Origin: a virus | Taxonomy: Duplodnaviria; Caudoviricetes | Length of the DNA stretch: 52,986 nucleotides | IMG/VR virus record: IMGVR_UViG_3300025112_000017 | Coordinates: 1-52,986 of that record | Reading direction: 5' to 3' (one strand) | In this document: one piece after another, positions 8,273 to 52,986 of the stretch | How positions within the stretch are numbered: the stretch's first letter is position 1 | Layout of the letters: every line of letters begins with the position of its first letter | Notes under the pieces: model-generated | What the model was told of the DNA's origin: nothing | Seen by the model: only the letters and a program-made list of their open reading frames with translations | Database searches by the model: none | Translations under genes and position numbers: made by a program

Positions 8273-8584
8273 ATGTCTCAGACAAAATCGCTCTATGAAG
8301 ACCCAAACATTGTGGTGTTTGGTGGGAAGATTACGCAGTTCCTGGAAGGGAAGAACACGCACGGCAATCTAAAGATTGAAGCCAAGCTTGTGAATAGCCA
8401 CGGGCAAGGTAAAAAAACATTTGATACAGTTGTCGGTGTTACAGCCTACGGGGCTGCTGCTTCAAAGATGAAGGACCTATACGAGTCTCACTCGTACTGT
8501 TTGGTACATGGTCGGCTTGCCTCCAACAGAGGTGATGACCTGTTCGTGATACCCAGCCAAGTGTTTGATGGGGGTGTTGAATGA
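8273..8584 (+). CDS. short SSB-like OB-fold protein lacking an acidic tail
   Basis: NIVVFGGKI...VTAYG...CLVHGRL pattern; AGGAGG RBS. Confidence 0.6.
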   Translation: MSQTKSLYEDPNIVVFGGKITQFLEGKNTHGNLKIEAKLVNSHGQGKKTFDTVVGVTAYGAAASKMKDLYESHSYCLVHGRLASNRGDDLFVIPSQVFDGGVE

Positions 8585-21500: not shown

Positions 21501-24500
21501 CCTGTTGACTTGCGAACATCACTAATCCTGGTGCCCTCTAAGAGCTTGCCGTCAAGCGATCTACCACCCCTAAGCAACCGGACGTTATGGTCGGCAGCCC
21601 TGGCTGTATGCTCAAGCTTGTTCGCATCACGGATCAATCTGCGGCCCTGTCGGCGCATAAACTTTTCCGCACCAGCCGTGTCATCGAAAACCGCAAGCTC
21701 AGCTTTGGCGTCGGACAGTTTCTGCGTAAGTTTTCTTACTTCGGATGCGTGTGCTGCGCGCTCTACCTCTGTAAGTGTCTCTATTACAGGCTTGGCAAGT
21801 GGGCCTATCCGCTCAAGACTTCTCTCTACGGCCTCTACTGTGAGCCTCGCATCTTCTGCGAGCTTTCCCGCTGTAGATCCGGGGTTGATTGCACCAGAAG
21901 ACTTAATGTCATCGGCAGCCCTAACCAAATCCTCACCAGCCTGCCTAAACGAGACAGACTTCTTGCCGGCACCTATGAATGTGTCATGAATAAGCTCGGT
22001 CGTTTTCTTCACGCTGGCCAACAAGGCCGCACGTTCGGCCTCATCTGCAACAGTCTGTAGCTTTCGAATATCTAATTGCATCTCAGCGAGGCGCTGTGCC
22101 CACGCGGCTTCTCCACTAATAGATGTAACCCCACCACGTTGGGACAGAATCGCCAACTCTTTGGCCATCTTGTTGAAGCTCTTGTCAGCCACAAGGATCT
22201 CGTCACCAACCTTCAATAAGCGCGCACTTCCTCCGACCCCACCCCACAACAGGGGGTCAAATAAAAACCATGAAGTCATCTCCATGATCTCTTTACCAAC
22301 AGGGGATGTCATTACGTCCCACTGCCAAGAGGCATCCTTTGGTTCGTACTTCTTCAGTGCGTGGGCTTCCTGTGGAGACACAGCGTAATCAAAGAAGTAC
22401 TTGAAGCTTGGGTTGAACATGCTTCGACCCCCTTCCTCAGGGACCTCGAATCCAATCCAATCCGCGTTCTGTCCGAATGCGTACCCGAAATGCCCTTCTG
22501 AGAAAGGTTCTACACCGTGAGTGATGTCGTAAAACTTTCGAGCCACATCTTTCGCTTTGGCCTCAGCAGCGTGATCTCCCTCAAAATCAAACCCAGCAAA
22601 CACCTCATCGAACGCCTCAATCCGACCGCGCGCACGCTCGGGTGCGCTAAGCATTGCTGCACCGTAGGCGCGCAGGCCCAAGTAAGCGCCAAGCTGAGCC
22701 TCTCTACGAACAATATCCAACCCCCAACCAAGCGTATGAAACGCTTGAACAAACCTGTTGGGGCCTGCCTGCTCAAGGTACTCGTCAGGGCTAACGAAGT
22801 CGTAATCCGTCCACTTGGAGAAGTGACGGAAGACATCCGATGTAGGGTCGTGACTCTCTTTATTAATTAAAGCAAACCACTCACGGATGGAAGCCTGGTC
22901 TGTCGGGTCTACACGGGGGATGTTCGTCGAGTACTTAGGTCCCCGCCCAAGGTCGATGGTTACATCTAAGGCAGAGGGTAAGTCTGGGTTGCCGAACCTA
23001 TCAAGAGCACCACCTGAGCGTAGTATCTCAAACCCCAGGTCAACCTCAGGTGCTGAGATGGGAATAGTCGGCTCGCCGTACAACTCTTTAGCAGCAGCCT
23101 CCACCGCGTCCCGCATACTGCTGGGCAGTACCCCTGGTGTAATCAAGCCCCCAACACTCCCTGCTGCCGCCTGGGACCAAGCGGATGTTTGAGCCTTGAC
23201 TATGTCGGAAGCTTCCGTGGTGTCTTCAATCTCACCAAGAAGGTACGAAACCGCCTCGCCTCTGCGAGAAAGCTCTTCGAGCCTCTTCTTCTCTTTATCA
23301 GTAAAGGGGCGGTCATCCTTCTGCTTGTAGGTCGAAAGAGAAAAGATTTCTTTAAAAAAGACGGACTTACTGCCGAAGAAGCTCTCTTCCCAATCTCGCT
23401 TATTAGAGATTATCGCAACCATCTCTAGAGCAATGTCCTTCTTCTCCGCCTGTAGCCTCGACCTCTCCGCGCTCCCGGTAAGGCTTTCATTCAGCGCTCC
23501 GGTAGGGATGAAGGCTGGTTGGGTGTGTAGGATTTCAGGAACTTCGGCTGGACTGTTCTCAACTAAGGCGTTGTACCGCTTTCTCATTTCCCCGAGAGGT
23601 TTCTGGAGAGGCTCTAATTCTCTTTTAAAAGCAAGAAGGTCTTTTACTTTTCCGGTAATCGTAAGATTGTTCCCGCCAGAAAGGGGGATTTGAACAGACG
23701 TTTCTTGGTTAAGCCTCCTTCCGGTTGCCCCTTTTAACCCAGTAAGGTTCCGAACAATATCTGAGTTTAAGAGATTTCCATCATTAGAAAAACCTGGGGT
23801 AAGCGCAGCCACGATTGACGGGAACGCCTCCGACTCCAGCAAGGAAAGAACATGCTTGTCCCTTGGTGCCTTACCCAAGTGACTCTGGCCCTTCCAGGCT
23901 CGGTCAGCACGGCGAAAGAACGATTGGTAAGCCTCATCAATAGCCTGGTTGAGAACAGCATCATCAACAGGTGAGTTGTAGGTGACATCACCGTGCATGG
24001 TAGTCAAGCCTTTGTCGCCAATAGGCTCCTCGTTCAGAAACGTAACCGACCCCGGCTCCAACCTTTTCAGCTTGCGAAACACCCACCAAGCAAGCGAGCC
24101 TTCACGCGCCGACCCCCCTACAGCCGGTAGAGACCTTTTGGCATTCTCTCTATCTCCCCCACGGAATACAATATGGTCTTTACCCTCGACCGCTATCTGA
24201 ACCTTAAAGGTGCGGGCTGTTTCGAGAGCACCTTTCCACGCATGCATAGGAGATCCGGGCTCTCCCCACCGGGCAGTCTCATACCTTCCGCCAAGCTTGT
24301 CCTCCCAGTAATCGCTAAGGGGAGCGCCGTTCAGGCTAATCTCCACCAAGCTATTCTTGTTGGACTCTACAGAATACACGGCGTCCATAAAGGAGGAGGC
24401 GAACTCTGATTTATCGAAATCAATTACGCCACCCCACCCAGGGTAGCCTGCACGAATTGCTTCGCGAGAGTTGTTGTCTAAAGACACCGCGCGCTGGAAG

Positions 24501-34770: not shown

Positions 34771-35865
34771 TTACAGTGAAACTGCGCCCTGAATAAGAAG
34801 GTTGGAAACGGCGAATTGAGTTTCAAGGATGATATAACCGACATCAGCGTCAGTGTTCGAGACCTCAAGATGGTCAGAGAACTTAGTAACGCGGAAGTCG
34901 TTGTTGGCATTTACCCAGTACTCAATACCGGACGGGTTCAACAAGTAGCAATGAGAGGCAGTAGTAGCGGCGGGGCTTGCTACGTTCTGCATGCGAGCAT
35001 CAGTCATCCAGCGATTCGAGTAATATTGAACACCGTTCACGATGTGAACAGTAGGATGAGCCTTACCCTTAGCCAAGTCTTCGACCGAGTAGGTCAAAGC
35101 AGATGCGTTAGCAGCGCCACCTGGGTAGGAGCGGACCTCTTCAGCAAGCTGAACATGGTCTGCAATAGACAGGAGACCCAAAGCGATTCCGCTTCCGTCT
35201 TCAGCGTAAGTGTCAGCAGTCATTTTGACCTGCTCAGCGTTCACAAGGAAGTCGGTACCGATACCGGTGGTCATTGCTTGGTACTGGTTGTACCAGTTGT
35301 TCATGAAGCTCGCCGTGTCTTGGACGCGAGTCTCGTTCAAATACGAGATACCTGCGGCTGCCTGAGCGGCGGGAGTCTGGAAACGAACAGCGCCGTTTCC
35401 GAAACCATTAGAAGTACCACTGGTCACATGTCCGTTCAACGAGCCCAAGCCCGTGAGCGTGCCGACATCACCAATGTAAACCTGTTGCATCATATCGTTC
35501 TTCAACGACATCATCGCAGCATCACTCTCCTCGCGGAGCCACTGAGCTTTCTCAGCAGGGGTGGGAAGGCGGTCCCGCGTAATATGCGGGAGAATGATAG
35601 GCTTAATGTAACGAGTCCAGTCACCAGTCATGGTGCTGTACGTTTCATAACGAACCAAGGGAACGCTCATGTTCGAGTCGTTAATCTCGGTAACGTCAGA
35701 GTGGCCGCCTTTGATTCGCTTGAAGCGAACCTGGGTTCCCCCAGAGCGTTTCACGCGGTTCTTATTCTGAAGCATCCGCAAAAGAGGATCGCTATTATAG
35801 AACGAGACGGTGGACTTTTTTACAAGGTCCGGGACAGTTAGATCAGCGTATTCAAGAAGGGCCAT
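34771..35865 (-). CDS. major capsid protein (HK97 fold)
   Basis: 364 aa after the scaffold; PLLRML...SGGTQV and YIGDVG...GL patterns. Confidence 0.8.
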   Translation of the reverse strand: MALLEYADLTVPDLVKKSTVSFYNSDPLLRMLQNKNRVKRSGGTQVRFKRIKGGHSDVTEINDSNMSVPLVRYETYSTMTGDWTRYIKPIILPHITRDRLPTPAEKAQWLREESDAAMMSLKNDMMQQVYIGDVGTLTGLGSLNGHVTSGTSNGFGNGAVRFQTPAAQAAAGISYLNETRVQDTASFMNNWYNQYQAMTTGIGTDFLVNAEQVKMTADTYAEDGSGIALGLLSIADHVQLAEEVRSYPGGAANASALTYSVEDLAKGKAHPTVHIVNGVQYYSNRWMTDARMQNVASPAATTASHCYLLNPSGIEYWVNANNDFRVTKFSDHLEVSNTDADVGYIILETQFAVSNLLIQGAVSL

Positions 35866-38135: not shown

Positions 38136-39893
38136 TCAACTAAGGCCAGGAATAGACTTGGCTAACGACGCTAAAATATCAGGGCTTATTCCGCCAGGAG
38201 CCGCCCCATTAACTGGTGCTTCAGGCGGCAACCCCATAGGCGGGCCCCCCTCCTCTGGCGCTGGTGGTTCTGGCGGGTTCTCGCGAATAACGCTGGGCCT
38301 CCAGCCGTAAGCATCGACAAGCTCTTTCGCAAGCTCTTTCATATCGAAAGACTCCGAGAGGCTGCTGCCTGTGAGCGCGGGCAACATGTTCGTCATTGAG
38401 TCTCGTCGAGCAATCTTGTCCTCCATAAGCGGCGAGAACGGAAGCAAGCGGAACCGGACGGATTCAGCGAGAAGCTCGTGCCCTAACACCTCAGGCGTAA
38501 CATCTGTGGTGGTCTTCTCTGCCAGGTCGGCAAGGTCGATACCAGAAACATCCCGGTTGGCTATGGCCCAGCGCATCACATCTAAGCACTGCTCAAATAA
38601 CTGCGTGACAACGCGAACTAACTTTTGTGAACGAATACGGAGGCGTCCCTCTACAGCACCGCGAATCATGTTCGCCTCTGCCGCTGTGCGTATGTTCGCC
38701 ACTTCTCCCCGCTGGTAATCGGACATTCCGGGAGTCCAGCGAATAGCTTCTACATTATCCTCAAGGTGCCTGTTAAAGTCGAATGTGGTCTGCATGTCAG
38801 GGGAAACCCAGACGCGCTGATCAATAGTGCCATCCACAGGAAACCGAATACGAGTAGGCTCCCAAGTCTTGGCGTCCTTCCAACGCTCAAAATCTTCCTC
38901 AGAGTTAAACAACCCCTCATCAACCAGCATGCGCTTAGGTAGTCGCGCAACCACCTCGCGACGAGCGGAGACCAGTTCGTTGATGTCTCTTTGTAGTGGC
39001 GCGATAAGCGAAACATCACTGATGCCTCGGATTCGGCCAACGCCATTGTTGAAGACCAACAAGCTGTAAGGTCTACGATAAGGCATCTTTGCTTCCATGA
39101 GAACTTGTCGCGTCTCTGGATGCATGTGGTAGATCATTCCACGCTTGTAATCCCAGAACTCAATCAGTCCAACAAACTCTTTCAAGCCTGCGCTTCTAAG
39201 CTCTCGCTCTTCCGCATCACCCAAACGCTCAGAGACAAGGCTCCGTGGATAGGTGTCTGCCTTAATATCTTTAGTTGCAGAATATAAGCCGCTCTTAACT
39301 CGCTTATTGAAATCGTCCCAATGAACGGTGAAGCGCTCGAAAGACCAGTTTGCATCACGGATGTGCTTCGCTGACGGGTCAAAGTGTACTTCCCACGGAA
39401 GTTTCAGTCGCCAGATTGGGCGGCCAAGCGGCATAGACCAAGAGACTTTCGCAATCCCCTCCCCAAAAAGGAGAGCGTGGAGAACAAACTCCTGAACGGT
39501 TGAGTCCAACTCATCGCGCTCAGCAATCCAATTGAGCACTGCTGCGATTCTGCGCCCTGAAAATGTAGGGTCCTCTGCTCGCGAGTTCGACTTGTACGAC
39601 GACTGACGCTGATCCAAAGCCTCTACTTGCGGTAGGTCCATAGCCAGGGCGGAAACAATCGTGTCCACAATAGGGAAGACTTCATTGCGAACAGCTTTGT
39701 ATGAACGGAACTGGCCGCTCTTTCCGTCCCCCCCGTAGCCGTCGCCGTCCCAAAATTTACCTCTATAGTAAGAAATGTTACGAACAATCTCTTCCATCCG
39801 CTCGTTACGAAAGAGCTTCTCCGAAGTGTTGACTAAGCCCATGACCCGCTTCACCAAGTCTTGTGTCTTTTCCTTTTTCGATTTCTTTCTCAT
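38136..39893 (-). CDS. portal protein (podoviral P22/SU10-like)
   Basis: ~585 aa after TerL; YYRG, RTAAEA, Pro-rich C-tail; ATGA overlap with TerL. Confidence 0.85.
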   Translation of the reverse strand: MRKKSKKEKTQDLVKRVMGLVNTSEKLFRNERMEEIVRNISYYRGKFWDGDGYGGDGKSGQFRSYKAVRNEVFPIVDTIVSALAMDLPQVEALDQRQSSYKSNSRAEDPTFSGRRIAAVLNWIAERDELDSTVQEFVLHALLFGEGIAKVSWSMPLGRPIWRLKLPWEVHFDPSAKHIRDANWSFERFTVHWDDFNKRVKSGLYSATKDIKADTYPRSLVSERLGDAEERELRSAGLKEFVGLIEFWDYKRGMIYHMHPETRQVLMEAKMPYRRPYSLLVFNNGVGRIRGISDVSLIAPLQRDINELVSARREVVARLPKRMLVDEGLFNSEEDFERWKDAKTWEPTRIRFPVDGTIDQRVWVSPDMQTTFDFNRHLEDNVEAIRWTPGMSDYQRGEVANIRTAAEANMIRGAVEGRLRIRSQKLVRVVTQLFEQCLDVMRWAIANRDVSGIDLADLAEKTTTDVTPEVLGHELLAESVRFRLLPFSPLMEDKIARRDSMTNMLPALTGSSLSESFDMKELAKELVDAYGWRPSVIRENPPEPPAPEEGGPPMGLPPEAPVNGAAPGGISPDILASLAKSIPGLS

Positions 39894-41512
39894 AGGTGGC
39901 GACCCCAAGGACTGTTCTGTCCTCTATTGGTCCCGCCATCAATCCTACGGATGAGCCGGTCCCAGTTTTTCTTAGCTATCTTACGACGATCCATCTCAGC
40001 AGGAATAGTCTTACCTGACTCGTAACGCCAAGCCCACGCGGCGATAGACATAGCAGCAACCAAGTCAAAGTGACCTCCCTTAGCATCCCTTTTCAGCTTA
40101 TCCCATTGTCCCCTATACTGGGTAAGTTGCTGGATAATCCGCCTAGAGGGTATGGTTAGGGACTCGTCAAGTATCAACTGTTGAAGTATTGAAATCGACT
40201 CTGCCTTTGTCTTCATGGACGAGTGCCACCCAGGTATACGGTTTGTGCCTATGTTCCGAGACAACGGCGAAGTGCTCGTCCTGTAATAGATCCTTCGGTA
40301 CCCATTTGATATAAGGTGACTTAGAACAGCCTCGCCAACGCCATTGCTCTCTACATAAATAGAGGCTTTGTTGAACTCAGCCCCAATCTTGCAAAGCCAT
40401 CCCGCCATATCGTGCGCGTCTCTGTGGCCTAAATAGTCGGCAACGACGGTACAAGTATCTATATCGAGAACAACCACGCCGGTATAGTCTCTCTTTGACC
40501 AGGACGATGCTGGGTCTACAGCGATCACATACCGATGATTTTCGTTTACGGCGTCATACCTTTCAAAAGACTTTGTCTCTTGGGACAGCCCAGTGTTCCC
40601 ATCGAGAGACTTCAGCATTAGCATTAGCCTGTCCGTATCGAAGACGGCGTCACCGACCATCGTCCAACAATCGACCTCATTAATTGGGTACTCCGCTCTA
40701 AACCTGCGCATGTCGCGGCGGCACTTCTCAAACCCAACAGTCTGCAACCAGAACGCCTGTGCGTCTGTAAGCGAATGCTTGTGCGCGTAATCAGCGATAA
40801 CGGAAGACGTTCTCCATCCGGGCGTGGGCTTCTTCGAATAAGAATCCACCATAGTCCACGGTATAAAAACTTTCAGCCACTTAGACCCCGGCGTGTCCGA
40901 GTCTATTGAAACTTGGTGCATCTGGTCCCCCTGAAACTTAGGGGTACTCTCTGCGAACACAATTCCCCCGTCGTCAGCCACTGCGTTCAGGGCGGATGTC
41001 CAAGCATCAGCACCCATCGACTCTGCCCAAGAACTAATCTCTGTTGCGAGAAGGACCTGAATAGTCTCTCCACGAAGGGGCTCTTCACCGCGAATGGTGT
41101 CAACAGTAAGTCTACTATCAATGTCTGGAAACTCAAGAGTCCTCTTAAGGCCAGGGGTCTTTCGCTGCTTTATTTCAGCGGGCGTGTGACCATGAAAACG
41201 AACAGCCATACCAGCAAGATAAGAGGCTGTATCTTTCTTGTGAGCCAGGATGGCTGTGCGACAACCGGGCCTATAAGCTGTGTGTTGATACGCAAGACCA
41301 GTAAAGAAAGTAGAGGAGCCCTCCTGCCTTGGCTTGATGTGACATATCCATCGGCGCTCTTTGTACGCCCTCATCACCCCGGCTGCCAGTATCTTCTGCG
41401 GTGTCCATAGGTCGAAGGGGACTATCTTTCCGCTCTTCGAGCGAAGGCTCATCATCGGTAAGAAGTGATTCGGGTCCCAGAAGTTTGGGTCATTCGGATA
41501 GACTATTTTCAC
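39890..41512 (-). CDS. terL: terminase large subunit
   Basis: KPRQEGSST Walker A, LLATE Walker B variant, AESTP, IAVDPAS and HFDLVAAMSIA nuclease motifs. Confidence 0.92.
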   Translation of the reverse strand: MKIVYPNDPNFWDPNHFLPMMSLRSKSGKIVPFDLWTPQKILAAGVMRAYKERRWICHIKPRQEGSSTFFTGLAYQHTAYRPGCRTAILAHKKDTASYLAGMAVRFHGHTPAEIKQRKTPGLKRTLEFPDIDSRLTVDTIRGEEPLRGETIQVLLATEISSWAESMGADAWTSALNAVADDGGIVFAESTPKFQGDQMHQVSIDSDTPGSKWLKVFIPWTMVDSYSKKPTPGWRTSSVIADYAHKHSLTDAQAFWLQTVGFEKCRRDMRRFRAEYPINEVDCWTMVGDAVFDTDRLMLMLKSLDGNTGLSQETKSFERYDAVNENHRYVIAVDPASSWSKRDYTGVVVLDIDTCTVVADYLGHRDAHDMAGWLCKIGAEFNKASIYVESNGVGEAVLSHLISNGYRRIYYRTSTSPLSRNIGTNRIPGWHSSMKTKAESISILQQLILDESLTIPSRRIIQQLTQYRGQWDKLKRDAKGGHFDLVAAMSIAAWAWRYESGKTIPAEMDRRKIAKKNWDRLIRRIDGGTNRGQNSPWGRHL

Positions 41513-43566: not shown

Positions 43567-43760
43567 TACTCGATCACTGCTTCTGGAGCGGGTGTAGGCT
43601 CCACAGCGGGCGTGACCTCTGCGGCAACAGGTTCCTCCACCACTTCTACTTGCGGTGGGGACAGCACGCATTGACCGAATACTGAACCGATGACGAGACT
43701 TCCACCGACCAGAGCGGCAGTCACACCATATTTGTTTTTCAACTCTACTAACTTAGACAT
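43566..43760 (-). CDS. small membrane protein (lysis region)
   Basis: One TM plus Pro/Glu/Ala tail. Confidence 0.5.
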   Translation of the reverse strand: MSKLVELKNKYGVTAALVGGSLVIGSVFGQCVLSPPQVEVVEEPVAAEVTPAVEPTPAPEAVIE

Positions 43761-44337
43761 CTTCTTCCTCCATCAGCGTATAGGTAAAGGCGTTGCCCCA
43801 TTCCTCTGCTGACTTCTTGATTATGGACAAGAAAAACTTCCAGTCCTCATAGCTCTGTATCACCTGGCAGCCTGCTGACCACTTGTCCACTGTAACCGCG
43901 AACCTCTGGGTTGAGGCACGATGGATATTTATTCCGTACCAGCCCTCATGTAAATCGTCATCTGTGCTATCCCAATCAAAGGTGTGGTCCCTGTCGTTAT
44001 CGCGCCACACCTTGACCGGAGCAAGGCGTTGACACAGGGCGTCGTACTTGCCTCGATGCTTGTCAATCTTCCATGCTTTGTACTGGCCTGGCACCAAGGC
44101 TGCCGTACCGTTCACAGCCATAGGATTCTCAAGCCAGTAGGTCCCTGGGTCTGTAGTCCCAGCGAATTCCCTGGTGATCCAAATGCCATCGTCGTCCTTG
44201 TAGACCAAGGCAATGGTGTCATCGAACTTGTTGGGCTCGCCTGTTCGACGGATGCCAATGATGTTGACGTTCCAGTTTCCGGAAGTGAAAATTCGGTAGC
44301 CCTTGGCTTTCACTTTCTGTAGTAGCAACGGTATCAT
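43753..44337 (-). CDS. putative endolysin (His/Cys YkuD/L,D-transpeptidase-like fold)
   Basis: NIIGIR, NKFDD, TTDPG, GINIHRA, WSAGCQV; flanked by holin-like genes. Confidence 0.7.
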   Translation of the reverse strand: MIPLLLQKVKAKGYRIFTSGNWNVNIIGIRRTGEPNKFDDTIALVYKDDDGIWITREFAGTTDPGTYWLENPMAVNGTAALVPGQYKAWKIDKHRGKYDALCQRLAPVKVWRDNDRDHTFDWDSTDDDLHEGWYGINIHRASTQRFAVTVDKWSAGCQVIQSYEDWKFFLSIIKKSAEEWGNAFTYTLMEEEDV

Positions 44338-45968: not shown

Positions 45969-46325
45969 CTATACCCCTTTGGACAAGAACTGCGCAGACA
46001 CGTTGAAATCACCACCTGCGCCAATAGTCACATTAGTGAATCGCAAATAAAGCCGCGTACCTACGCAGTAGACAGCAACAACTCCTGTTCCCGTTACGGT
46101 ACTCGCCGCGCCCTCAGCCCACGCCTCGAATGTGGGGTCCCACCAGAAAGGGGTGACATCAATAGTGTCGGCTGCCCCTGTTCCGTTTGCGGAAACCATA
46201 ACCATTGCTTCCGTTACGTCTACTGTGGGATATTCAACACCCTGAGTGACGAGTGTGGGTATGCCTGTATCAGCAGACACGCCTGTTGCGTAAGTGGTTG
46301 GGGTGATTCTAAAGTTTCTTCCCAT
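45969..46325 (-). CDS. small beta-rich putative virion protein
   Basis: AAGGAAGG RBS; Thr/Gly/Val-rich. Confidence 0.5.
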   Translation of the reverse strand: MGRNFRITPTTYATGVSADTGIPTLVTQGVEYPTVDVTEAMVMVSANGTGAADTIDVTPFWWDPTFEAWAEGAASTVTGTGVVAVYCVGTRLYLRFTNVTIGAGGDFNVSAQFLSKGV

Positions 46326-46406
46326 GTGTGCACCTTCCTTCAATCATATAGACTGAGTCAACTCAATAACGGTATTGTTGTAACCTACCCATAACAGGAG
46401 AGAAAC

Positions 46407-46730
46407 ATGGCTAAAGTACAGAGGCTTGGGCAATTGGTCAAGACCAGCAAGAAAGACTTCGTAAAGAATCTTAGAACCACCCTATCAAAAAGCGAGGGGG
46501 CTGTCTCCCCAAATATAATTCCACAAGGGGAGCAACCCAAAGAAGCTCGCACGGACGTAGAGAGAGAGGCCGCGAAGAAACAAAAGCAAGCATTAGCCGC
46601 AAGCCCCGAAGTTTCCTACACAATCAGCGATGAAGAGCGCATGATGAATCATGTTATTGGTAAGATGCGCTTAGGGCGCGACCTAACCACAGAAGAAGAA
46701 ACTTTCGTACAAAAAATAATTGGAGATTGA
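46407..46730 (+). CDS. hypothetical protein
   Basis: AGGAG RBS. Confidence 0.65.
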   Translation: MAKVQRLGQLVKTSKKDFVKNLRTTLSKSEGAVSPNIIPQGEQPKEARTDVEREAAKKQKQALAASPEVSYTISDEERMMNHVIGKMRLGRDLTTEEETFVQKIIGD

Positions 46731-47490
46731 GATGGGATACTTTGGAGCAAGCGACGACGAGCGAGCAGAGCGCCGAGCCGCACGAGAAGAAAGACTAGAC
46801 GAATACCGCGCTAGCGATGCGTATAAGGCGCGCTGGGCAGACAGTATCGACAACCCAGCCGCACCATTCATGGATAAAAGCCCGGAGGAAATCCAAAGCC
46901 TTATTATTCACATGGCCCAACTCCTAAGGGTTTCGGGCAAGGTAACAAAGGGTGGAGGTCTCGGGCGGGAGCAATTCCTTGAAACGCTTGGAGAGCTTGA
47001 AGCCGCCAAAGAGACAAAGCGCCGGGAGCTTTTGCAGGAGAGCGAGCAACAGCGCCGGGAGCTTTTGCAGGAGATTGAGGAAGACATGGTGTATTTCCAG
47101 CCACAGGGAGAAGGGGACATTGCCGTTGAGGAAGACCCAAAGCCAACCAGAGGCTCAAGCCGAACAACAGCCACACCAGAGAAACTAGAACATCTGCCCC
47201 CATCCCAATTCGACAAGGTCGAGCGTCGTATTGAGGTCACAAAGCCAGAACCGACCAACAAGAACCAACCCTCCGGTAGCAAAAAGAGGGACACCAAGGG
47301 CGACAACCTCCACTTGCTGGTAGACGGACCCACGCTTACCGAATCTCCTGCGGAGAAGGCTGCGAGTGAGGCCCGCCGCAAAAAGGTAATAGCGGAGTTG
47401 GAGGCCGTTATGGACGAGGCCAAGAAGGCAGAACCCAAAGCAAAGAAAGCCCCCTCCCGCACTACGAACCCCAACACCCTCCGACGGTAG
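46720..47490 (+). CDS. charged hypothetical protein with internal duplication
   Basis: 24-bp repeat at 47018-47041 and 47051-47074 (RRELLQE x2). Confidence 0.65.
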   Translation: MEIEMGYFGASDDERAERRAAREERLDEYRASDAYKARWADSIDNPAAPFMDKSPEEIQSLIIHMAQLLRVSGKVTKGGGLGREQFLETLGELEAAKETKRRELLQESEQQRRELLQEIEEDMVYFQPQGEGDIAVEEDPKPTRGSSRTTATPEKLEHLPPSQFDKVERRIEVTKPEPTNKNQPSGSKKRDTKGDNLHLLVDGPTLTESPAEKAASEARRKKVIAELEAVMDEAKKAEPKAKKAPSRTTNPNTLRR

Positions 47491-47508
47491 GGCCATGAAC
47501 ACAGAGAG

Positions 47509-47581
47509 TGGGGTGTAGTTCAATCGGCAGAACGCCTGACTGTTACTCAGGAGGTTGTTGGTTCAAGTCCAGCCGCCCCAG
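47509..47581 (+). tRNA. tRNA-Asn(GTT), no encoded CCA
   Basis: Acceptor TGGGGTG/CGCCCCA with G discriminator, anticodon stem CCTGA/TCAGG with loop CTGTTAC, T-loop TTCAAGT. Confidence 0.92.
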
Positions 47582-47603
47582 CTTCTCACATAAGGAGACT
47601 ACC

Positions 47604-47831
47604 TTGAAGACATTTGAGTTTACGTTCAAAGCGGTTGGCTACGGAGCCGACGCAGACGAAGCGCTTGAGAATATACTGACCTCCATAAAGGAGAGCCCGG
47701 AAGGAACCATTGAACCAGACGTAGTGTTCGAGGAGATACCCCCCGACGCCGCCTGCCTTGCCCTCCAGGAAACCCTAAGGACAGTCTCTAAACACATGCT
47801 TCCTTGGAACACCGCCACCGGTAAGGCGTAA
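47604..47831 (+). CDS. acidic hypothetical protein
   Basis: AAGGAG RBS + TTG start after the tRNA. Confidence 0.6.
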   Translation: MKTFEFTFKAVGYGADADEALENILTSIKESPEGTIEPDVVFEEIPPDAACLALQETLRTVSKHMLPWNTATGKA

Positions 47832-47887
47832 AGGCAAGCCAGTACCGCCAGACGTAGCGCACTCTAATGACAAGACAGTTGTTTCTA

Positions 47888-48214
47888 TACTAGTAGAGTT
47901 CCTAGTAACCATACGTATTCTACTAGTGGATACTGTTGCTATAATTTAATTAACCACAGTTACAACAAGCAAGATAATTAACAGTTGCTACTAGTAAGAA
48001 CCCCAGTGACATACGTATAGGTACCAGAGGGTAAAGTGTTATAGGTCCTGTATCCTTGTCAAGGGCAAAAGCAAGCTGGTTTTACAAAGTATTACTTTTA
48101 GATACAACCAGTGACCTACGTGTAAGGACTAACCCCAATCGCAATACCCCCATTACGGAAGACGCTCTTCTTGTATTCAGTATATTTTTTATGAGAGGTG
48201 TATAGATACTAGTA
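47888..48214. repeat. AT-rich region with repeated TACTAGTA-type palindromes
   Basis: Copies or variants at 47888, 47901, 47921, 47989, 48207. Confidence 0.6.
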
Positions 48215-48232
48215 GTATGGGGGCATGGGGGG

Positions 48233-48443
48233 GCGTGCACGGGTGCGGGGGCGCGCGTACGGGGGCGTGCGCGTGTGTGTGCCCGCATGCGCAAGCGCCT
48301 GCCCACGTATGTGTGCGCATGTGCCCACGTATGCCTGCGTGTGTGTGCGCATGTGAGCGTATGTGCGTGTACGTGTGTGTGCATGTACGTATGTGTGCAC
48401 GCAAGCGCCTGTGTGTGCACGTGTGGGTGCCTGTGTGCACGTG
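48233..48443. repeat. RY-alternating tract 1
   Basis: 47 nt of uninterrupted alternation at 48357-48403. Confidence 0.9.
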
Positions 48444-48550
48444 AAAGGGTGATTTATGCCGATTTTGACACTATTAGACCCTCTCCTACCGGTATCCGCA
48501 CCGCATTAGAACCCCCTGCATAGCCCGTAAAGCCCTATAGCTGCCCCGTG

Positions 48551-48620
48551 AAGGCCCTTGTCAGTCCTTAGGTATACCATGACATAGGTTTAGCCCCTTG
48601 CGAGCCCTTGAGAGGCCTTG
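48551..48620. repeat. 10-bp phased CCTTG-ending repeats
   Basis: aaggcccttg, tcagtcctta, tagccccttg, cgagcccttg, agaggccttg in exact 10-bp register. Confidence 0.6.
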
Positions 48621-48665
48621 TAGCGCTTGCTTTGCCGAAACCAGGGTACCAATAAGGCCCAGAAC

Positions 48666-48699
48666 AAAAAAAAGGCCCCACCCGGATAGGTGAGACCTT
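48666..48699 (-). terminator. rho-independent terminator
   Basis: AGGTCTCACC/GGTGGGGCCT stem followed by a T-run, downstream of 48794. Confidence 0.8.
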
Positions 48700-48793
48700 G
48701 AATTCTGTTAGCTACTTTATGGAATAAATAGCCAAGCTATTGCAGCTACGTAGGCCATCCACAGCAGAACCGTGGCAGCCATAAGCACCGCTT

Positions 48794-49360
48794 TCATTGA
48801 AGCTTGGCCATCTGCGCTTGAATAGCTGTCATCTGGTCAGCAAGTGCTTTCAAAAGCTCCTGGTTGCCTGCCTTGGGCGCTACCTTGCGGCGTTGGGCTT
48901 TACGCCTTTTGTCGCTGTCGTACTCGATAGGCTTTGCTTTGGGTGCTTTCTTTGGTGCTTTCTTAAGCGATACCTTAGGCTTTACTTTGGCCTTAGGCGC
49001 TTGCTTTGGTGCCTCTGTCAAGATGAGACCTCCGTCCGTCGAACGGCTAACGCCCCAAGCCTCTAAGGTCGGCGTGTTGTGGCCGATAGACTCCCTAAAT
49101 AGCTGCTTGTCATAGCTACGTGAGCATTGGGAAGCATCTTTGTGGAGCATGCTAAACGAATGCCCTCCACGGCCTCGCATAAGCCGACCGATAGCCAATT
49201 CTCCGCTTTCGAATAGCTCGATAAGCTCATCGAGATCCTCCGCAAGGGCTTCGCCGCAACGACAGCAAACTAATTCCCCCTTAGGGAATGAATCTACAAT
49301 ATCCTCAATGGCTAACAGGCTTTGCGTCTGCTCTTTTGCTCGTCTAATTACTTTTCTCAT
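48794..49360 (-). CDS. CxxC protein with Lys/Ala/Pro-rich (histone H1-like) linker
   Basis: VCCRCG; APKQAPKAKVKPKVSLKKAPKKAPKAKP. Confidence 0.65.
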   Translation of the reverse strand: MRKVIRRAKEQTQSLLAIEDIVDSFPKGELVCCRCGEALAEDLDELIELFESGELAIGRLMRGRGGHSFSMLHKDASQCSRSYDKQLFRESIGHNTPTLEAWGVSRSTDGGLILTEAPKQAPKAKVKPKVSLKKAPKKAPKAKPIEYDSDKRRKAQRRKVAPKAGNQELLKALADQMTAIQAQMAKLQ

Positions 49361-49415
49361 TTTGTCCTACCTTTTAGGGTTTCCATCACCCGGTTTTGTC
49401 TGGCCGGTCATCGGC

Positions 49416-49434
49416 TGACAGCCTCAGCTTATCA
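49416..49434. promoter_or_regulatory. operator 4 TGACAGC-CTCAG-CTTATCA
   Basis: 18/19 identical to operator 3; upstream of 49360. Confidence 0.7.
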
Positions 49435-49489
49435 CTATCCGGCGAAAAAATTCAAGTTCTTTTGGTGCGCATTATGCGCAGGGAAAAGC

Positions 49490-49757
49490 CGCGTGTGTGC
49501 GCGTAGTGTCAGGAGACCGCCCGCCCCCATGCCTATGCATGTGTGCATGTGTGCATGTGTGTGTGTGCATGTGCGTGCGCCTGCATGTGCGCCTGCGCCT
49601 GTGCATGTGTGTGCGCGCCTGCCTGTGCGTGTGCGCGTGTGCGCCCGCTCGCCTGCCCGCGCCCGCTCGCGCCTGCGCCTGCGCGCCCGTGCCCGTGCGC
49701 GGGTGTGCGCCTGCGCACTTATATAATAGACACACACAGACACACACAGACACGCGC
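49490..49757. repeat. RY-alternating tract 2
   Basis: 47 nt of uninterrupted alternation at 49534-49580; ends in (GACACACACA)2GACAC. Confidence 0.9.
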
Positions 49758-49776
49758 CTACTTATAAAGTGAAGGC

Positions 49777-49822
49777 AAAAGAAAACCCCGATAGCTCAAG
49801 GACAATTGCTACCGAGGTCTTC
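49777..49822 (-). terminator. rho-independent terminator
   Basis: GACCTCGGTAGC/GCTATCGGGGTT stem followed by TTCTTTT. Confidence 0.65.
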
Positions 49823-49876
49823 TATCTAAGGAGTCGAGCGATGGACTCTCGAAACCTATAACATATCTTATAGCTG

Positions 49877-50035
49877 CTAACTATAAGTCTCACCTTCTTT
49901 AGGTGGAGTAGGTACGGACTGGTCTACCAGAACACCAGCGAAAAAAGCATTGGCCTCCTTATCAGACATTGGTCGAACCACCTTAGCTATCCACTTAAGG
50001 AAAGCTCTCTTCTCCTTAGGTGTCAGCCCTTCCAT
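49877..50035 (-). CDS. 52-aa hypothetical protein (not in ORF track)
   Basis: MEGLTPKEKRAFLKW...TYS*; TAATG coupling to the upstream gene. Confidence 0.55.
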   Translation of the reverse strand: MEGLTPKEKRAFLKWIAKVVRPMSDKEANAFFAGVLVDQSVPTPPKEGETYS

Positions 50036-50328
50036 TAGGCCACCGCCTTGTCAGCTTCGGATAGGTCTTCTTCTTTAGAGGGTACTGTCTCGACATCTAC
50101 GCTAACTGCTACAGTAGGGCCATCAGCTTTCCACTCCTTAGGCTGCGCAGTAAAGGCAACACCAGTAGCCTTCTCTTCTACCGACCAGTTCTCAGCATAG
50201 GTAGAACTACCAAAGAACTTAATCTTCATAGTCTTTACCTCTGTAAAAGTAACTGTTGCTACATAAGTGTGTGTGACTGGCTTGCCGTCCAAGCCTCTGA
50301 TTGACCGACTGATTGTTTTAAATCCCAT
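50035..50328 (-). CDS. hypothetical protein
   Basis: AGGAG RBS before MGFKTISR. Confidence 0.65.
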   Translation of the reverse strand: MGFKTISRSIRGLDGKPVTHTYVATVTFTEVKTMKIKFFGSSTYAENWSVEEKATGVAFTAQPKEWKADGPTVAVSVDVETVPSKEEDLSEADKAVA

Positions 50329-50400
50329 GATAATCTCCTGATTATAGTTTTGGGGTTGTTGGGTTGGTGAGATTACGGCTCTCACCAGGCCGTCCCTTCC

Positions 50401-52038
50401 CTACTGGAAGTACATTTGATTTACTTGCTTAGCCTTAGCTGCCAAGACTGGAACCAAGACACCGGCTTCCTTCTCTAAGGTAGCTGACTCAACCTCGTCC
50501 AAGAGACCTTCCCAGGCTCCTCTTGTAAGAGAGTTTACTAATGATTCTAAGGTGTTACCTTGTTCAAAGTCATACCCTACAGTAAGGGCCTCGACCAGAA
50601 CCTTGTCGGCAATAGCCTTGCCAATCTCTCCCTCTTGAATACCATAGTCAAGAGCATCAGTAACAGTCTCGAATCGCTGGCCCCAAAGCTCTACCTTATT
50701 GATAGGGGTTTCATTTAGATAGCCCCAGTCCTGAAGGAAGACATTGAAGCCAGCCTTTAGTGCTTCCATGTGAGATAGCATAGTCTCTTTGACATGAGAG
50801 ACATCTCCCATGTGACGAATCCGGAAAGTCGGAGCATACTTCTCATCTAAGATAATGAGATTCAAGCAAAGGTTACGGAAGCTAATTCCACCACCGTTGA
50901 TTGACCCCTTACCACTATCATTAGTACGGAACCGCATACCTACTTTGAATACGTCACCGGCTGCCAAGTCAGTGATAGTCTCCGGCATCCATAGGGCATC
51001 AAAGGTTACATTAGTGGTAGCAGGATTGTATGTTAGCTTACCTTTAGCACCAGTGAAGTCAATGCCAGCAGCTAAGTTAGCAGCTATCTCGTCGGCATCT
51101 ACTACTGCATAGTTAGGGCTGACCACACCAAACACTGACCGACCGTCACCGTTCAACCTTGTCCTTAGGTTTATAGTAGCGTCCTTATCTGCTTTGACTA
51201 CTTGCTTGTTCCATACATAGGCTCTAACGTCAGGGTCTAATGCCAAGAACTGGCGATAACCTGAAGGGAATAGCTGGTCACTTCGAGTACCTGTTAGGGT
51301 GTGAGGCGCTCGCATCTTACTTAGTAAGGCATTCAATCCCGCTTCCTCTAAGAAGATAGGTGCCTCACCAGGAATGTTCAGACCACCATCGTCATTCATA
51401 AGCAAGTCAGAAGAGAATACCTCTAAGTCTTCTCGCTGTTCTAATCGGACAGTAGAAGCCAAAGCCTCCAAAGCCTCCTTAGCTTCTGGCATATCACTGA
51501 ACGAGCTTCTAAACTCACGGAACCTTTTGTTCCCATCGTCCCTTACTCTTGTTCCCTTAGCAAAGATAGGGGGAGCATGAGAAATACCCATAGCAACTAA
51601 GGCTTCTTGATGACGGTCAATACGGTCCACCGCAATCTGGCTTACACCCTTTCCAGTTACCTCGTTACCATGAGAGTTAGAATAAGGCTTGAGTTCGCCG
51701 CTTTCGATTGCCTTGTTGACAGAGTCTTTGTACTCTTGAGAAGGTACATAAGGCACCGTCTCATCACCGCCTAAATGGTAAGCCTGCTCTGCTTCGTTCG
51801 TATCTACCTCATCTTCATCATCATAGTTATCTTCAGTAGAAGTAAACTCATTGACCGACTCACCAAGGGAATCCATGGCATCGTTGGTGGCCTCATAGTT
51901 ATCTTCAGAGGTATCTGAATCTCTATCAGGTACAAAGCGCAAGTCCTTGTTGAATCCTGAAGCTGCGAAAGTTTCCATAGCCTCTACCGTAGTACCAAAG
52001 TACTGTACTTCTCCTGTCCTATCATTTACAAGTCTCAT
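50401..52038 (-). CDS. DUF932-like protein with acidic N-terminal extension
   Basis: GVVSPNYAVVD and NDSGKGSI...FRNLCLN...RIRH motifs; GGAG RBS before 52038. Confidence 0.65.
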   Translation of the reverse strand: MRLVNDRTGEVQYFGTTVEAMETFAASGFNKDLRFVPDRDSDTSEDNYEATNDAMDSLGESVNEFTSTEDNYDDEDEVDTNEAEQAYHLGGDETVPYVPSQEYKDSVNKAIESGELKPYSNSHGNEVTGKGVSQIAVDRIDRHQEALVAMGISHAPPIFAKGTRVRDDGNKRFREFRSSFSDMPEAKEALEALASTVRLEQREDLEVFSSDLLMNDDGGLNIPGEAPIFLEEAGLNALLSKMRAPHTLTGTRSDQLFPSGYRQFLALDPDVRAYVWNKQVVKADKDATINLRTRLNGDGRSVFGVVSPNYAVVDADEIAANLAAGIDFTGAKGKLTYNPATTNVTFDALWMPETITDLAAGDVFKVGMRFRTNDSGKGSINGGGISFRNLCLNLIILDEKYAPTFRIRHMGDVSHVKETMLSHMEALKAGFNVFLQDWGYLNETPINKVELWGQRFETVTDALDYGIQEGEIGKAIADKVLVEALTVGYDFEQGNTLESLVNSLTRGAWEGLLDEVESATLEKEAGVLVPVLAAKAKQVNQMYFQ

Positions 52039-52108
52039 GATGAGTCTCCGTTGGCCGTAGCCGGTTTGGTTTGGTTTGACCGTGACATCCACTGCCCCGT
52101 TCAGTCCC

Positions 52109-52138
52109 TTTATAACGCCAGGCTATCAGAAAAGTCAA
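52109..52138 (-). promoter_or_regulatory. promoter TTGACT-N18-TATAAA overlapped by operator 5 (52110-52128, TTATAAC-GCCAG-GCTATCA)
   Basis: Same geometry as the promoter at 2068-2097. Confidence 0.7.
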
Positions 52139-52189
52139 CAAAATAGTTTGGACAGGCTCTCGGTACAACGAAAAAAGTTTTCCACAAAA

Positions 52190-52394
52190 TGTGTGTGTAT
52201 GTGTGTTGAGTGTGCATCTGTGTATATGCTTATGCATACGCTCTTGTACCTGTGTATGTGCGCACGTGTCTATGTGTATATGTGTGTGTATATGTATGTG
52301 TATGTGCGCGCTCGCCTGTGCCTGCGCACGCCCGTGTCTGCGTGAGGCAGTGTGCCTGCATGCTTGACACACACAGACACACGGACACACACAC
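52190..52394. repeat. RY-alternating tract 3
   Basis: 41 nt of uninterrupted alternation at 52271-52311; ends in a GACACACACAGACACAC block. Confidence 0.9.
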
Positions 52395-52509
52395 TGCTAG
52401 AAGAAAACTCCCCACAGAAGTATGAAGGAGAACACTACAGTAGCTAATGGAGAACCGCTCTCCATTGTTAGGGCTCCCTGAATTACTATCCCCATAACTA
52501 AACAAAACC

Positions 52510-52764
52510 CTAACATAGCTTTGGAAAGCTAATGCAGGCACCTCTTAGGTTAGGGTCCTTGAATAGAGAGTCAGGAGGTAGGCTGATAATGATGCGGTTT
52601 AGTTTATCATTGACCGTCTCCATGTCTAAGTTATTGTAAAGGTTATACTTTCTTTCACAGATACCACACTGCCAGACTTCATGCGTATCAGTTGTATCTA
52701 CAATAGAGACGTTGCTATGCCTAAGCTTCATGCCTTCAATGAAGGCCCTACGTTTCCCTTCCAT
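52510..52764 (-). CDS. small CxxC hypothetical protein
   Basis: AGGAGG RBS; WQCGIC. Confidence 0.65.
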   Translation of the reverse strand: MEGKRRAFIEGMKLRHSNVSIVDTTDTHEVWQCGICERKYNLYNNLDMETVNDKLNRIIISLPPDSLFKDPNLRGACISFPKLC

Positions 52765-52773
52765 GATTACCTC

Positions 52774-52977
52774 CTATGGATTGTCTGGAATAGATTGTAG
52801 CTTAGCTTGAACCTCAGACAAGGAGTCAACCAAGTCCACTATCTTGCTTTCAAGGGAGAGCTTTCCGCTTCGGCTGATACTCTTGACGGGTCCTGTTCCT
52901 AAGAGCAGCCCCACTACAGTATGCAGTTCGTCTTGAGAGTATCGTATGCGATCCCAACCAAAGACTTTGTAGGGGTG
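52774..52977 (-). CDS. 3' part of the junction-spanning hypothetical protein
   Basis: Open frame continuous with 123->1; TAG stop overlaps the RBS of the next gene. Confidence 0.7.
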   Translation of the reverse strand, partial: HPYKVFGWDRIRYSQDELHTVVGLLLGTGPVKSISRSGKLSLESKIVDLVDSLSEVQAKLQSIPDNP

Positions 52978-52986
52978 TTCGCCCTT

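Follow-up and report, generated by a model that had tools for sequence, protein, structure and literature searches.

The virus record IMGVR_UViG_3300025112_000017, a tailed-phage genome of 52,986 bp (here called the window, the whole stretch of DNA that was analysed), carries three long intergenic tracts in which purines and pyrimidines alternate, and these tracts are the subject of this report. In an approximate energetic model they are the dominant Z-DNA-prone loci of the genome, and they are specific to a small lineage, in which position and architecture have been conserved despite turnover of the sequence. The tracts are probably functional elements of the DNA, and the role that we tentatively rank first is that of a DNA-level torsional buffer or insulator between transcription units, next to an iteron hub.

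The tracts lie on the strand of a series of leftward genes, at three junctions that we call A, B and C in the direction of transcription, and they consist of the following parts.

52366-52394, minus strand: GT-rich head of tract 3 (sense strand), of repeat family D6, which it has in common with the head of tract 2
52190-52363, minus strand: CA/TA-rich body of tract 3 (junction A)
49726-49757, minus strand: GT-rich head of tract 2 (sense strand), directly after a terminator, alignable across three genomes with invariant columns
49490-49717, minus strand: CA/CG-rich body of tract 2 (junction B), with in-phase GCAGGC-type units
48217-48443, minus strand: tract 1 (junction C), a CA/CG-rich body without a GT head and with a C-rich end, alternation 0.82

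Genome-wide, the fraction of alternating steps is 0.47, and simulating the window 200 times with a first-order Markov model gave longest perfect purine/pyrimidine runs with a mean of 14.85 nt and a maximum of 22 nt. The longest perfect runs in the tracts measure 47 nt (48357-48403), 47 nt (49534-49580) and 41 nt (52271-52311). Stretches of 100 bp with an alternation of at least 0.72 are found at 48215-48479 (maximum 0.93), 49462-49770 (0.90) and 52168-52401 (0.88), and the sole further stretch at this level, marginal at 0.73, lies within a gene (2583-2686). Overall, the tracts are 200-270 bp long with an alternation of 0.75-0.82, and their plus strand is TG-rich in all three cases, which makes them CA-rich on the strand of the flanking genes. 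A preliminary description of this DNA had reported three tracts of this composition with perfect runs of 41-47 nt, and both its coordinates and its account of the content hold against simulations that never exceed 22 nt. It had also called the tracts unexpected in a compact phage genome, which agrees with the small amount of intergenic DNA: stretches of at least 40 bp add up to only 3,298 bp (6.2% of the genome), 1,895 bp of which belong to the three tract-bearing junctions, and no further intergenic region of the window carries such a tract.

The internal structure of the tracts is that of degenerate simple-sequence DNA. Tandem Repeats Finder (TRF) detects nested degenerate tandem periods (2, 6 and 8-38 nt; 62-100% matches) in all three, so that they classify as simple-sequence repeats built of tandem short units, the repeats being degenerate and not pure. 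Furthermore, the three tracts are mutual direct repeats with 60-71% identity over 48-76 nt. Same-class interruptions are predominantly of odd length, which leaves the alternation in phase (96 odd versus 41 even in the tracts; 4,186 versus 7,500 in the genome background), and tract 1 keeps a single purine/pyrimidine phase over 227 bp, with a match of 0.91 and 0 phase shifts. The density of six-base palindromes is 35.7 per kb in the tracts and 7.4 per kb in the rest of the genome, and the high value follows from the alternation itself; the hexamer GTGCAC is present in 4 copies in the tracts and 1 copy in the remaining 52 kb. A coding function was considered and rejected, since open reading frames (ORFs) in the tracts are not kept on one strand between genomes; an open frame arises automatically in such DNA, as every stop codon (TAA, TAG or TGA) and its complement requires two neighbouring purines or pyrimidines. 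The tracts contain no conserved palindromic unit of the repetitive extragenic palindromic or bacterial interspersed mosaic element (REP/BIME) type, their similarity being of low complexity, 60-71% only and limited to three sites, and no regular repeat-spacer structure of a clustered regularly interspaced short palindromic repeat (CRISPR) array.

A fourth, much shorter stretch had been grouped with the tracts in the preliminary description.

2123-2141, no strand assigned: mini-tract, a 19-nt alternating run after the stop of a gene for a protein of 302 amino acids (aa)

This run falls within the chance range given by the simulated maximum of 22 nt, and its alternation is only partly kept in one related contig (L003) and not kept in another (L024, introduced below). 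The mini-tract is probably incidental, and the claim that it belongs with the others is therefore dropped.

The propensity of these sequences to leave the B form was estimated with a simplified B-Z model that combines dinucleotide B-Z energies, Z-Z junction costs and 5 kcal/mol per B-Z junction (Table 1 of PMC3024258) with assumed values of the stiffness constant and of junction unwinding, and that finds, for a fixed superhelical density (sigma), which combination of Z runs is optimal across the window. The model ranks loci and is no prediction of behaviour in vivo. It assigned the following lengths to the Z form.

Sigma -0.035: tract 1, 210 bp; tract 2, 182 bp; tract 3, 0 bp; genome, 392 bp
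Sigma -0.04: tract 1, 210 bp; tract 2, 214 bp; tract 3, 94 bp; genome, 590 bp, with 518 bp in the three tracts; five Markov shuffles, 0 bp each
Sigma -0.05: tract 1, 226 bp; tract 2, 242 bp; tract 3, 198 bp; genome, 1,922 bp; five Markov shuffles, 1,168-1,474 bp each

At sigma -0.035, tracts 1 and 2 flip as runs of 210 and 182 bp. One predicted Z run of tract 2 at sigma -0.04 spans 200 bp (49518-49717), and the longest run predicted outside the tracts, even at sigma -0.05, is 50 bp. A single-run onset calculation gave no discrimination between sites. A Z-forming sequence is generally expected to hold a CG- and CA/TG-rich alternating run of at least about 8-12 bp, for which the tracts have runs of 41-47 nt, and in the approximate model their transition occurs at an attainable superhelical density. 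By this model, the three tracts are the dominant Z-prone loci of the genome, and the suggestion of the preliminary description that they are Z-prone can be sharpened accordingly: they are its strongest predicted Z-forming loci, taking up 518 of the 590 bp at sigma -0.04.

To place the tracts in an evolutionary context, homologs of the DUF932-like protein, which is encoded between tracts 3 and 2, were collected and their alignments used to fetch the surrounding loci, giving 37 DUF932-bearing loci with a total of 330 kb. An alternating window of at least 100 bp is present at only 2 of the 37, and these are the two closest relatives, L023 (67% DUF932 identity to the window) and L024 (55%), both of them independently assembled marine metagenome contigs. 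A genome collection contributed 6 distant DUF932 loci, 0 of them with a tract. Within the lineage, a tract stands at 8 of 8 observable equivalent junctions, namely A, B and C of the window, A, B and C of L024, and B and C of L023, whose contig begins within the DUF932 gene and ends within tract C, so that its junction A is not visible. The preliminary description had named absence from close relatives with the same genes among the results that would count against it; the tracts are present in both L023 and L024. Their reality is independently supported by these two relatives in other assemblies and by near-identical DNA in several marine runs.

The architecture of the tracts is conserved together with their position. 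Polarity is identical throughout, with a GT head followed by a CA/CG body on the sense strand of the A and B junctions; the head is found at 5 of 5 A/B junctions and the C-rich end at 3 of 3 C junctions. The fraction of T on the sense strand of the body is 0.09-0.14 in the five most body-dominated tracts, and up to 0.24 where head or flank is included. Perfect runs in the three genomes reach 21-47 nt, and L024 keeps a 21-nt run of pure GT. The terminator, the start of the head, the palindrome and the -35 module (described below) can be aligned between the genomes, whereas the tract bodies cannot. Tract length ranges from 118 to 331 nt across equivalent junctions (310, 176 and 118 nt at junction B), and such variation between related genomes is a feature of microsatellites. 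Gene content between the tracts is stable as far as the DUF932-like gene and a gene for a 188-aa protein are concerned, both being found in all three genomes, and it varies in the small ORFs upstream of the junction-B terminator. The earlier picture of accessory genes arranged as cassettes is borne out only in part, the small ORFs near terminators being variable and the two anchor genes conserved in all relatives.

Further anchors led away from this lineage. The DUF932 protein alone gave no match in the viral collection, and alignments anchored on DnaB, terminase and the 302-aa protein recovered only L003/L049 and L004, which end short of the tract region. A 17-mer common to the tract heads retrieved 13 loci, all unrelated, and a 15-mer from the B tracts retrieved 74 loci with no relative of the phage among them; 21 of these 74 carry an alternating window of at least 100 bp, in a sample that is biased by the probe. 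In this probe-biased sample, long intergenic regions of unrelated uncultured viral contigs contain alternating tracts of a degenerate kind, 100-380 bp in length (L117 3204-3388, L109 7608-7785, L062 8579-8847 and L089 3393-3771; also L060, L075, L087, L092 and L123). Several of these tracts adjoin iteron-like repeats, GGTACAAAGTACAATAAG in L117 and GTGTAACC in L109, and in L089 a C7 run is followed by a TACCAGTAGTA motif, as at junction C of the window.

Whether the tracts are relics can be judged from the divergence of the genes around them. At fourfold degenerate sites of orthologous genes of the three genomes, transversion differences amount to 0.28-0.46, where saturation lies near 0.5 (the range excludes the 188-aa window/L024 pair, with 20 sites and a value of 0.70), and transitions add a further 0.20-0.38; neutral sites between the three genomes are near saturation. 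Neutral decay from a perfect tract is calculated to leave an alternation of about 0.62-0.64 and a longest perfect run of about 14 nt, and the survival probability of a 47-nt perfect run, calculated from the fourfold divergence, is about 1e-6. The observed alternation is 0.73-0.82 in 7 of 8 delimited tracts. The remaining one, at junction C of L024, scores 0.61 because its automatic delimitation ran into the AT-rich iteron region. Since alternation and run lengths exceed the neutral expectation, the tracts must be either renewed by slippage or protected by selection, and are not passive relics.

The tracts are embedded in junctions with a recurrent layout, which is given here in the direction of transcription (leftward). 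Junction A runs from the stop of an 84-aa gene through the GT head (52394-52366) and the CA/TA body (to 52190) to a GGAAAAC-TTTTTTCG motif, a promoter-like site and the DUF932-like gene. Junction B begins with the stop of a 52-aa gene, a terminator and the GT head (49757-49726), followed by the body (to 49490), a palindrome, a -35 module and the 188-aa gene. At junction C, the 188-aa gene and an overlapping 26-aa ORF are followed by a terminator, about 230 nt of hairpins, the tract body, its C-rich end and iterons. Tract 1 thus lies after the last leftward transcription unit and beside the iteron cluster, beyond which come the 3' ends of converging plus-strand genes and a tRNA-Asn (47509-47582). 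The elements around the tracts are as follows.

52109-52138, minus strand: TTGACT-18-TATAAA, a promoter-like site located downstream of tract 3 and about 70 nt ahead of the likely ATG at 52038, read by eye
49786-49801, minus strand: intrinsic terminator, a stem and then a T-run, ending the DUF932 unit before tract 2, with equivalents in L023 and L024
49466-49480, no strand assigned: operator-like perfect palindrome TGCGCAT-A-ATGCGCA (TGCGCATAATGCGCA) between tract 2 and the 188-aa gene
49443-49467, minus strand: CACCAAAAGAA-CTTGAAT-TTTTTCG module with a -35-like hexamer, of a kind that also follows tract 3 and the mini-tract and recurs in relatives
48672-48699, minus strand: intrinsic terminator (12-bp stem, T8) of the 188-aa unit, separated from tract 1 by about 230 nt, with equivalents in L023 and L024
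48219-48251, plus strand: G-quadruplex-type G-run motif where tract 1 ends distally; its sense strand is C-rich
47889-48215, no strand assigned: iteron cluster beside tract 1, with the 8-mer ACTAGTAG/CTACTAGT in 4 copies that occur nowhere else in the window (compare repeat family D10)

The element order of the preliminary description is correct, subject to three refinements: the terminator scan found no canonical terminator upstream of tract 3, about 230 nt of hairpins and the 26-aa ORF separate the last terminator (48672-48699) from tract 1, and the promoter after tract 2 has a poor -10. The palindrome at 49466-49480 is the only perfect copy in the window and is conserved in L023. The adjoining CACCAAAAGAA-CTTGAAT-TTTTTCG module is a putative promoter, with a good -35 and, by eye, a poor -10. 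The promoter-like site downstream of tract 3 is absent from the promoter scan list because position 6 of its -10 is an A. Beside the mini-tract, an inverted repeat (2102-2122) and a promoter (TTGACA-18-TATACT, 2068-2097) are conserved, and in L003 the pairing of this inverted repeat is preserved through changes on both arms. A control module of inverted repeat, CACCA-AAA.. and CTTGA-type -35 precedes several leftward units (2068-2122, 49443-49480 and L024 1940-1980).

At the distal end of tract 1, the G-run motif is one of 3 such motifs in the window (both strands); the junction-C tracts of L023 and L024 end in equivalent C-runs, and the 13-mer CGCCCCCCCATGC is common to the window and L023. 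All 3 copies of ACTAGTAG/CTACTAGT in L024 are found at the equivalent junction (9861-9915). The iteron cluster is situated between converging units and also comprises AT-rich DNA and further short repeats; it may act in packaging or as an origin of replication. A group of small GC-rich hairpins (with loops such as CCTTAGGG and CCCTAAAGGG) separates the 188-aa unit's terminator from the junction-C tract and is seen by eye in all three genomes (window 48450-48670, L023 3580-3790, L024 9080-9520).

Four features make up the coding content between and beside the tracts.

50401-52092, minus strand: DUF932-like gene, with an ORF from GTG 52092, where relatives start at the equivalent of ATG 52038
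49877-50385, minus strand: two small genes (116 aa and 52 aa) that come last in the unit between tracts 3 and 2 and form the part of it that varies from relative to relative
48794-49360, minus strand: gene for the 188-aa protein between tracts 2 and 1, with an N-terminal domain, a Lys/Ala/Pro-rich middle and a C-terminal helix
48717-48797, minus strand: hydrophobic 26-aa ORF overlapping the stop of the 188-aa gene, with counterparts in L023 (3430-3519, 29 aa) and L024 (8959-9051, 30 aa)

Judging from the relatives, the real start of the DUF932-like gene is probably the ATG at 52038. Its earlier label is kept with reserve, as the match itself is weak (18.6 bits versus a cut-off of 23) and some homologs carry PF06067. 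The 116-aa protein has a homolog in L023, and the 52-aa protein has none. The 188-aa family comprises 3 members among 1.84 billion representative proteins, with conserved residues Cys32 and Cys35 (a CxxC pair) and His94 in the N-terminal domain; its AlphaFold2 model has a predicted local distance difference test (pLDDT) score of 67. The protein has no Pfam or PHROG family and no significant fold match (best Foldseek E 0.15, weak matches mostly winged-helix, template modelling (TM) scores below 0.5, atlas scores <0.9). A role as a reader of Z-DNA was considered for it and is not established, given that there is neither a Pfam or PHROG family nor a significant fold match. The 26-aa ORF and its relatives have similar C-termini (..LFIP, ..ILIPTN and ..ILIP) and probably encode a translationally coupled small membrane peptide of 26-30 aa.

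How might such tracts be used? A structural role is ranked first because DNA is costly in a compact genome, the tracts persist at all junctions and their Z propensity is predicted to be high. On this view, the host RNA polymerase would transcribe a leftward operon in which the tracts serve as structural spacers: each would occupy the space that separates the end of a transcription unit from the next control region, except the last, which sits between the end of the operon and the iteron-bearing hub. As they are long and alternate largely in one phase, they would be expected to be the first in the genome to flip from B to Z under rising negative stress, and they would flip back under positive stress; a flip of 200 bp would absorb roughly 36 turns. 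Together, they could hold local superhelical density near the flip threshold, and the neighbouring promoters and the iteron hub would thereby be shielded from each other's transcription-driven torsion. We infer that Z-DNA may form in the infected cell and that buffering may be the reason for retention. The available part of a 2026 review presents torsional buffering by Z-DNA in bacteria as a leading hypothesis, with limited direct in-vivo evidence (PMC13463272), and a preprint, in the part available, links Z-forming sequences in bacteria to spontaneous deletions (PMC13174585). Such deletion-proneness makes an unselected persistence of the tracts less likely.

Several observations weigh against torsional buffering. 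Tract 1, the most Z-prone of the three, is flanked by convergent units, an arrangement whose positive supercoiling should counteract the Z form, and the positive and negative torsion of tandem units would partly cancel without any special element. The preliminary description had argued that tracts 2 and 3 and the mini-tract lie where negative supercoils build up behind RNA polymerase; this logic does not fit tract 1 in its convergent zone, and the supercoiling idea is carried forward only as a hypothesis. Unalignable bodies, lengths of 118-331 nt and nested tandem duplications are the product expected of slippage without selection, and 0 of the 35 more distant DUF932 loci (identity 41% or lower) have tracts. 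The mean phase match of about 0.78 is near the 0.75 calculated for neutral decay from a perfect ancestor, so that the case against simple decay rests solely on the turnover in length and on the perfect runs being so long. In-phase interruptions suit long uninterrupted Z runs and are not decisive, since point substitution on a slippage-born tract gives the same pattern. Finally, the B-Z model treats a single locus at fixed sigma without finite-domain competition, and it fails at sigma -0.06, where it predicts 19 kb of Z-DNA.

An account nearly as likely as torsional buffering, and itself far from secure, holds that the tracts are functionless simple sequence that renews itself. A (TG/CA)n microsatellite would have arisen at three tolerant intergenic sites in the ancestor of the lineage, slippage of even units would outpace mutation and deletion, and polarity and local flavour would perhaps persist merely because slippage copies existing sequence. 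This explains the turnover best: it fits the nested periods that TRF detects (2 to 38 nt, 62-100% matches), the unalignable bodies of 118-331 nt, the pure cores that are left (such as the 21-nt GT run in L024), the interruptions, which are mostly of the substitution type, and the absence of tracts from the 35 more distant DUF932 loci. It sits uneasily, however, with a very compact genome (6.2% intergenic) in which no other intergenic region has gained a tract, with the retention of a tract at 8 of 8 junctions through near-saturating divergence, with a GT head that is conserved in sequence beyond its composition, and with the deletion-proneness of Z-forming repeats in bacteria reported in the available part of PMC13174585. 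A different use of the same DNA would be as recombination joints, which we regard as distinctly unlikely. RecA-family proteins have a preference for GT-rich DNA, and lambdoid phages reportedly carry short linkers where their modules join; with their GT-rich strand and their mutual similarity (direct repeats with 60-71% identity over 48-76 nt), the tracts might offer preferred pairing sites for host RecA or for the Erf/Rad52-type annealase of the phage acting with its Cas4-like exonuclease, genes for both of which are present, and co-infecting relatives might thereby swap, lose or gain units. The small ORFs beside tract 2 do differ among the three genomes while the anchor genes are constant. 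Yet all three genomes have the same DUF932-like and 188-aa genes between the tracts, phages commonly vary in the small ORFs at gene boundaries without any special sequence there, and no breakpoint could be mapped to a tract, the relatives being too distant at the DNA level. Nothing places exchanges inside the tracts, and the cassette swapping proposed in the preliminary description thus lacks direct support.

The tracts might also act as RNA, although we hold this to be improbable. Carried in read-through or antisense transcripts, the GU head and CA body could form a stem for RNase III, the C-rich last tract could load Rho, or the CA-rich sequence could be a decoy for an RNA-binding protein or nuclease. 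In predicted folds the head does pair with CA runs of the body, with z-scores of -2.44 (tract 2) and -1.88 (tract 3), but such z-scores are modest, and which parts pair varies from genome to genome. The junction-C tracts are C-rich and G-poor, and those of the window and L023 (C 0.41-0.45, G 0.18-0.23) fit by composition the C-rich, G-poor and weakly structured RNA of at least about 80 nt that a rut site is expected to have, whereas in the A and B tracts C is about equal to G and the RNA of tract 2 folds strongly (-168 kcal/mol); Rho prefers YC dinucleotides, which strict alternation excludes. The weak-looking promoter after tract 2 suggests that the 188-aa gene may rely on read-through, and against this good intrinsic terminators precede tracts 2 and 1. 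No Rfam family reaches threshold in the tracts: with Rfam 15 over 46000-52986, only the tRNA-Asn passes, and the matches to the tracts are sub-threshold microRNA look-alikes (about 20-40 bits versus cut-offs of 48-100) caused by the TG repeats. Least probable of all, and very doubtful in our judgement, is that the tracts are protein-binding arrays read by the 188-aa protein, by a helix-turn-helix (HTH) regulator (3046-3360) or by a host nucleoid protein. The 188-aa gene always lies between two tracts, its family of 3 proteins is confined to this lineage, the protein has a Lys/Ala/Pro-rich region and mostly winged-helix weak matches (best E 0.15, TM below 0.5), and the tracts are dense in short palindromes (35.7 versus 7.4 six-mers per kb). 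Against this, the structural and family searches of the 188-aa protein gave nothing significant, no repeated specific site is conserved within the bodies and the palindrome density is automatic from alternation. A link to the DRT3 defence system, whose product is poly(dT-dG)/(dC-dA) duplex DNA according to the available part of PMC13174585, was also considered; nothing ties DRT3 to this phage.

Returning to torsional buffering, a stronger version would make the tracts the first natural, selected Z-DNA elements of a phage. As reversible torsional capacitors they would split the early operon into topologically independent units and shield the iteron-bearing replication or packaging hub, and the same element would be present, unrecognised, in unrelated uncultured viruses such as L117, L109, L062 and L089. 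We consider this version unlikely. Among the papers listed by literature searches on Z-DNA or non-B DNA in phages, on microsatellites in phages and on Z-DNA under supercoiling in Escherichia coli, none describes such tracts in a phage.

The phage itself appears, from its sequence, to be a previously undescribed, lytic-type marine phage of a lineage without a deposited relative. Its record in IMG/VR is classified as linear and has a CheckV completeness estimate of 100%. Near-identical DNA occurs in 8 listed runs, every one of them labelled marine metagenome and none listed as RNA, which is neutral as evidence. Among 50,697 phage records, blastn found no match to the tract region and tblastn none to the DUF932-like and 302-aa proteins, and the top terminase match is Roseobacter phage CRP-7 with 24.9% identity. 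Pfam and PHROG searches identified the following proteins.

3046-3360, minus strand: Cro/CII-like HTH regulator
3422-4765, plus strand: DnaB-type helicase
5551-6414, plus strand: Erf/Rad52-type annealase (PF04098, E 2.4e-12; phrog_1097)
8581-9573, plus strand: Cas4-like exonuclease
9575-9982, plus strand: SSB
10683-12332, plus strand: DnaG-type primase
34771-35865, minus strand: major head protein
38136-39908, minus strand: portal
39890-41512, minus strand: terminase large subunit
43753-44337, minus strand: endolysin-like protein

The annealase bears out what the preliminary description had said of a Rad52-type protein. No DNA polymerase, RNA polymerase, topoisomerase or methyltransferase family was found among the 37 predicted proteins scanned with PHROGs and/or Pfam, about 20 mostly small ORFs being outside the scan; without a detected topoisomerase or polymerase family, the topology of the phage DNA would depend on host enzymes. 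Between 3360 and 125, and again between 52986 and 48717, every gene lies on the minus strand. In L024 the equivalents are contiguous, in the order DnaB, HTH, 302-aa protein, DUF7227, tract, DUF932, tract, 188-aa homolog and tract. The ends of the window are therefore arbitrary, and the tracts belong to the distal part of one long leftward arm, which begins at the HTH regulator. An ORF of 4,276 aa (12581-25411, minus strand) takes up a quarter of the genome and adjoins the structural genes; it has no Pfam or PHROG match. The tRNA-Asn (GTT; 47509-47582, plus strand) lies at the start of an ORF called at 47508-47831, and because of this overlap the real protein gene must begin downstream of the tRNA.

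Comparison with known systems helps to define what is particular about the tracts. Inserts of (CA/TG)n and (CG)n reportedly form Z-DNA when the bacterial plasmid that carries them is negatively supercoiled (Nordheim and Rich 1983; Rahmouni and Wells 1989). The phage tracts use the same dinucleotides (CA/TG, CG and some TA) and are long enough to flip, with a predicted onset at sigma -0.035 to -0.04. Whereas the plasmid inserts were engineered, pure and tens of bp long, the phage tracts are natural, degenerate, 200-270 bp long and placed at three conserved positions with fixed polarity, and their Z conformation is a prediction only. With the degenerate non-coding microsatellites of eukaryotes ("cryptic simplicity") they have in common the nested tandem duplications, the rapid turnover of length and sequence and the substitution-type interruptions; they differ in that they lie in a 53-kb genome that is 6% intergenic, at three sites only, and are kept at 8 of 8 junctions across near-saturated divergence. 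Like the linkers at module junctions of lambdoid phages, they are intergenic, located at the borders of gene units, mutually similar and candidate sites of exchange, but those linkers are short and specific, while the tracts are long and of low complexity and no exchange point has been mapped to them.

The biological role of Z-DNA in bacteria and their viruses is a long-standing question, for which direct in-vivo evidence is described as scarce in the available part of PMC13463272. The present lineage is a small natural test system for it, as three conserved Z-prone tracts have a terminator, an operator palindrome, a promoter and an iteron cluster as neighbours, in a genome with almost no other spare DNA and with no topoisomerase detected among the scanned proteins. 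On the practical side, the L023 contig ends within its junction-C tract (3793-4002), which suggests that alternating tracts break short-read metagenome assemblies. Functional tracts would add a new class of cis-element to the organisation of phage genomes and would supply a ready-made part for synthetic operons insulated from supercoiling. Tracts without a function would mean that simple-sequence DNA persists for long in a compact phage genome, which would itself be unexpected.

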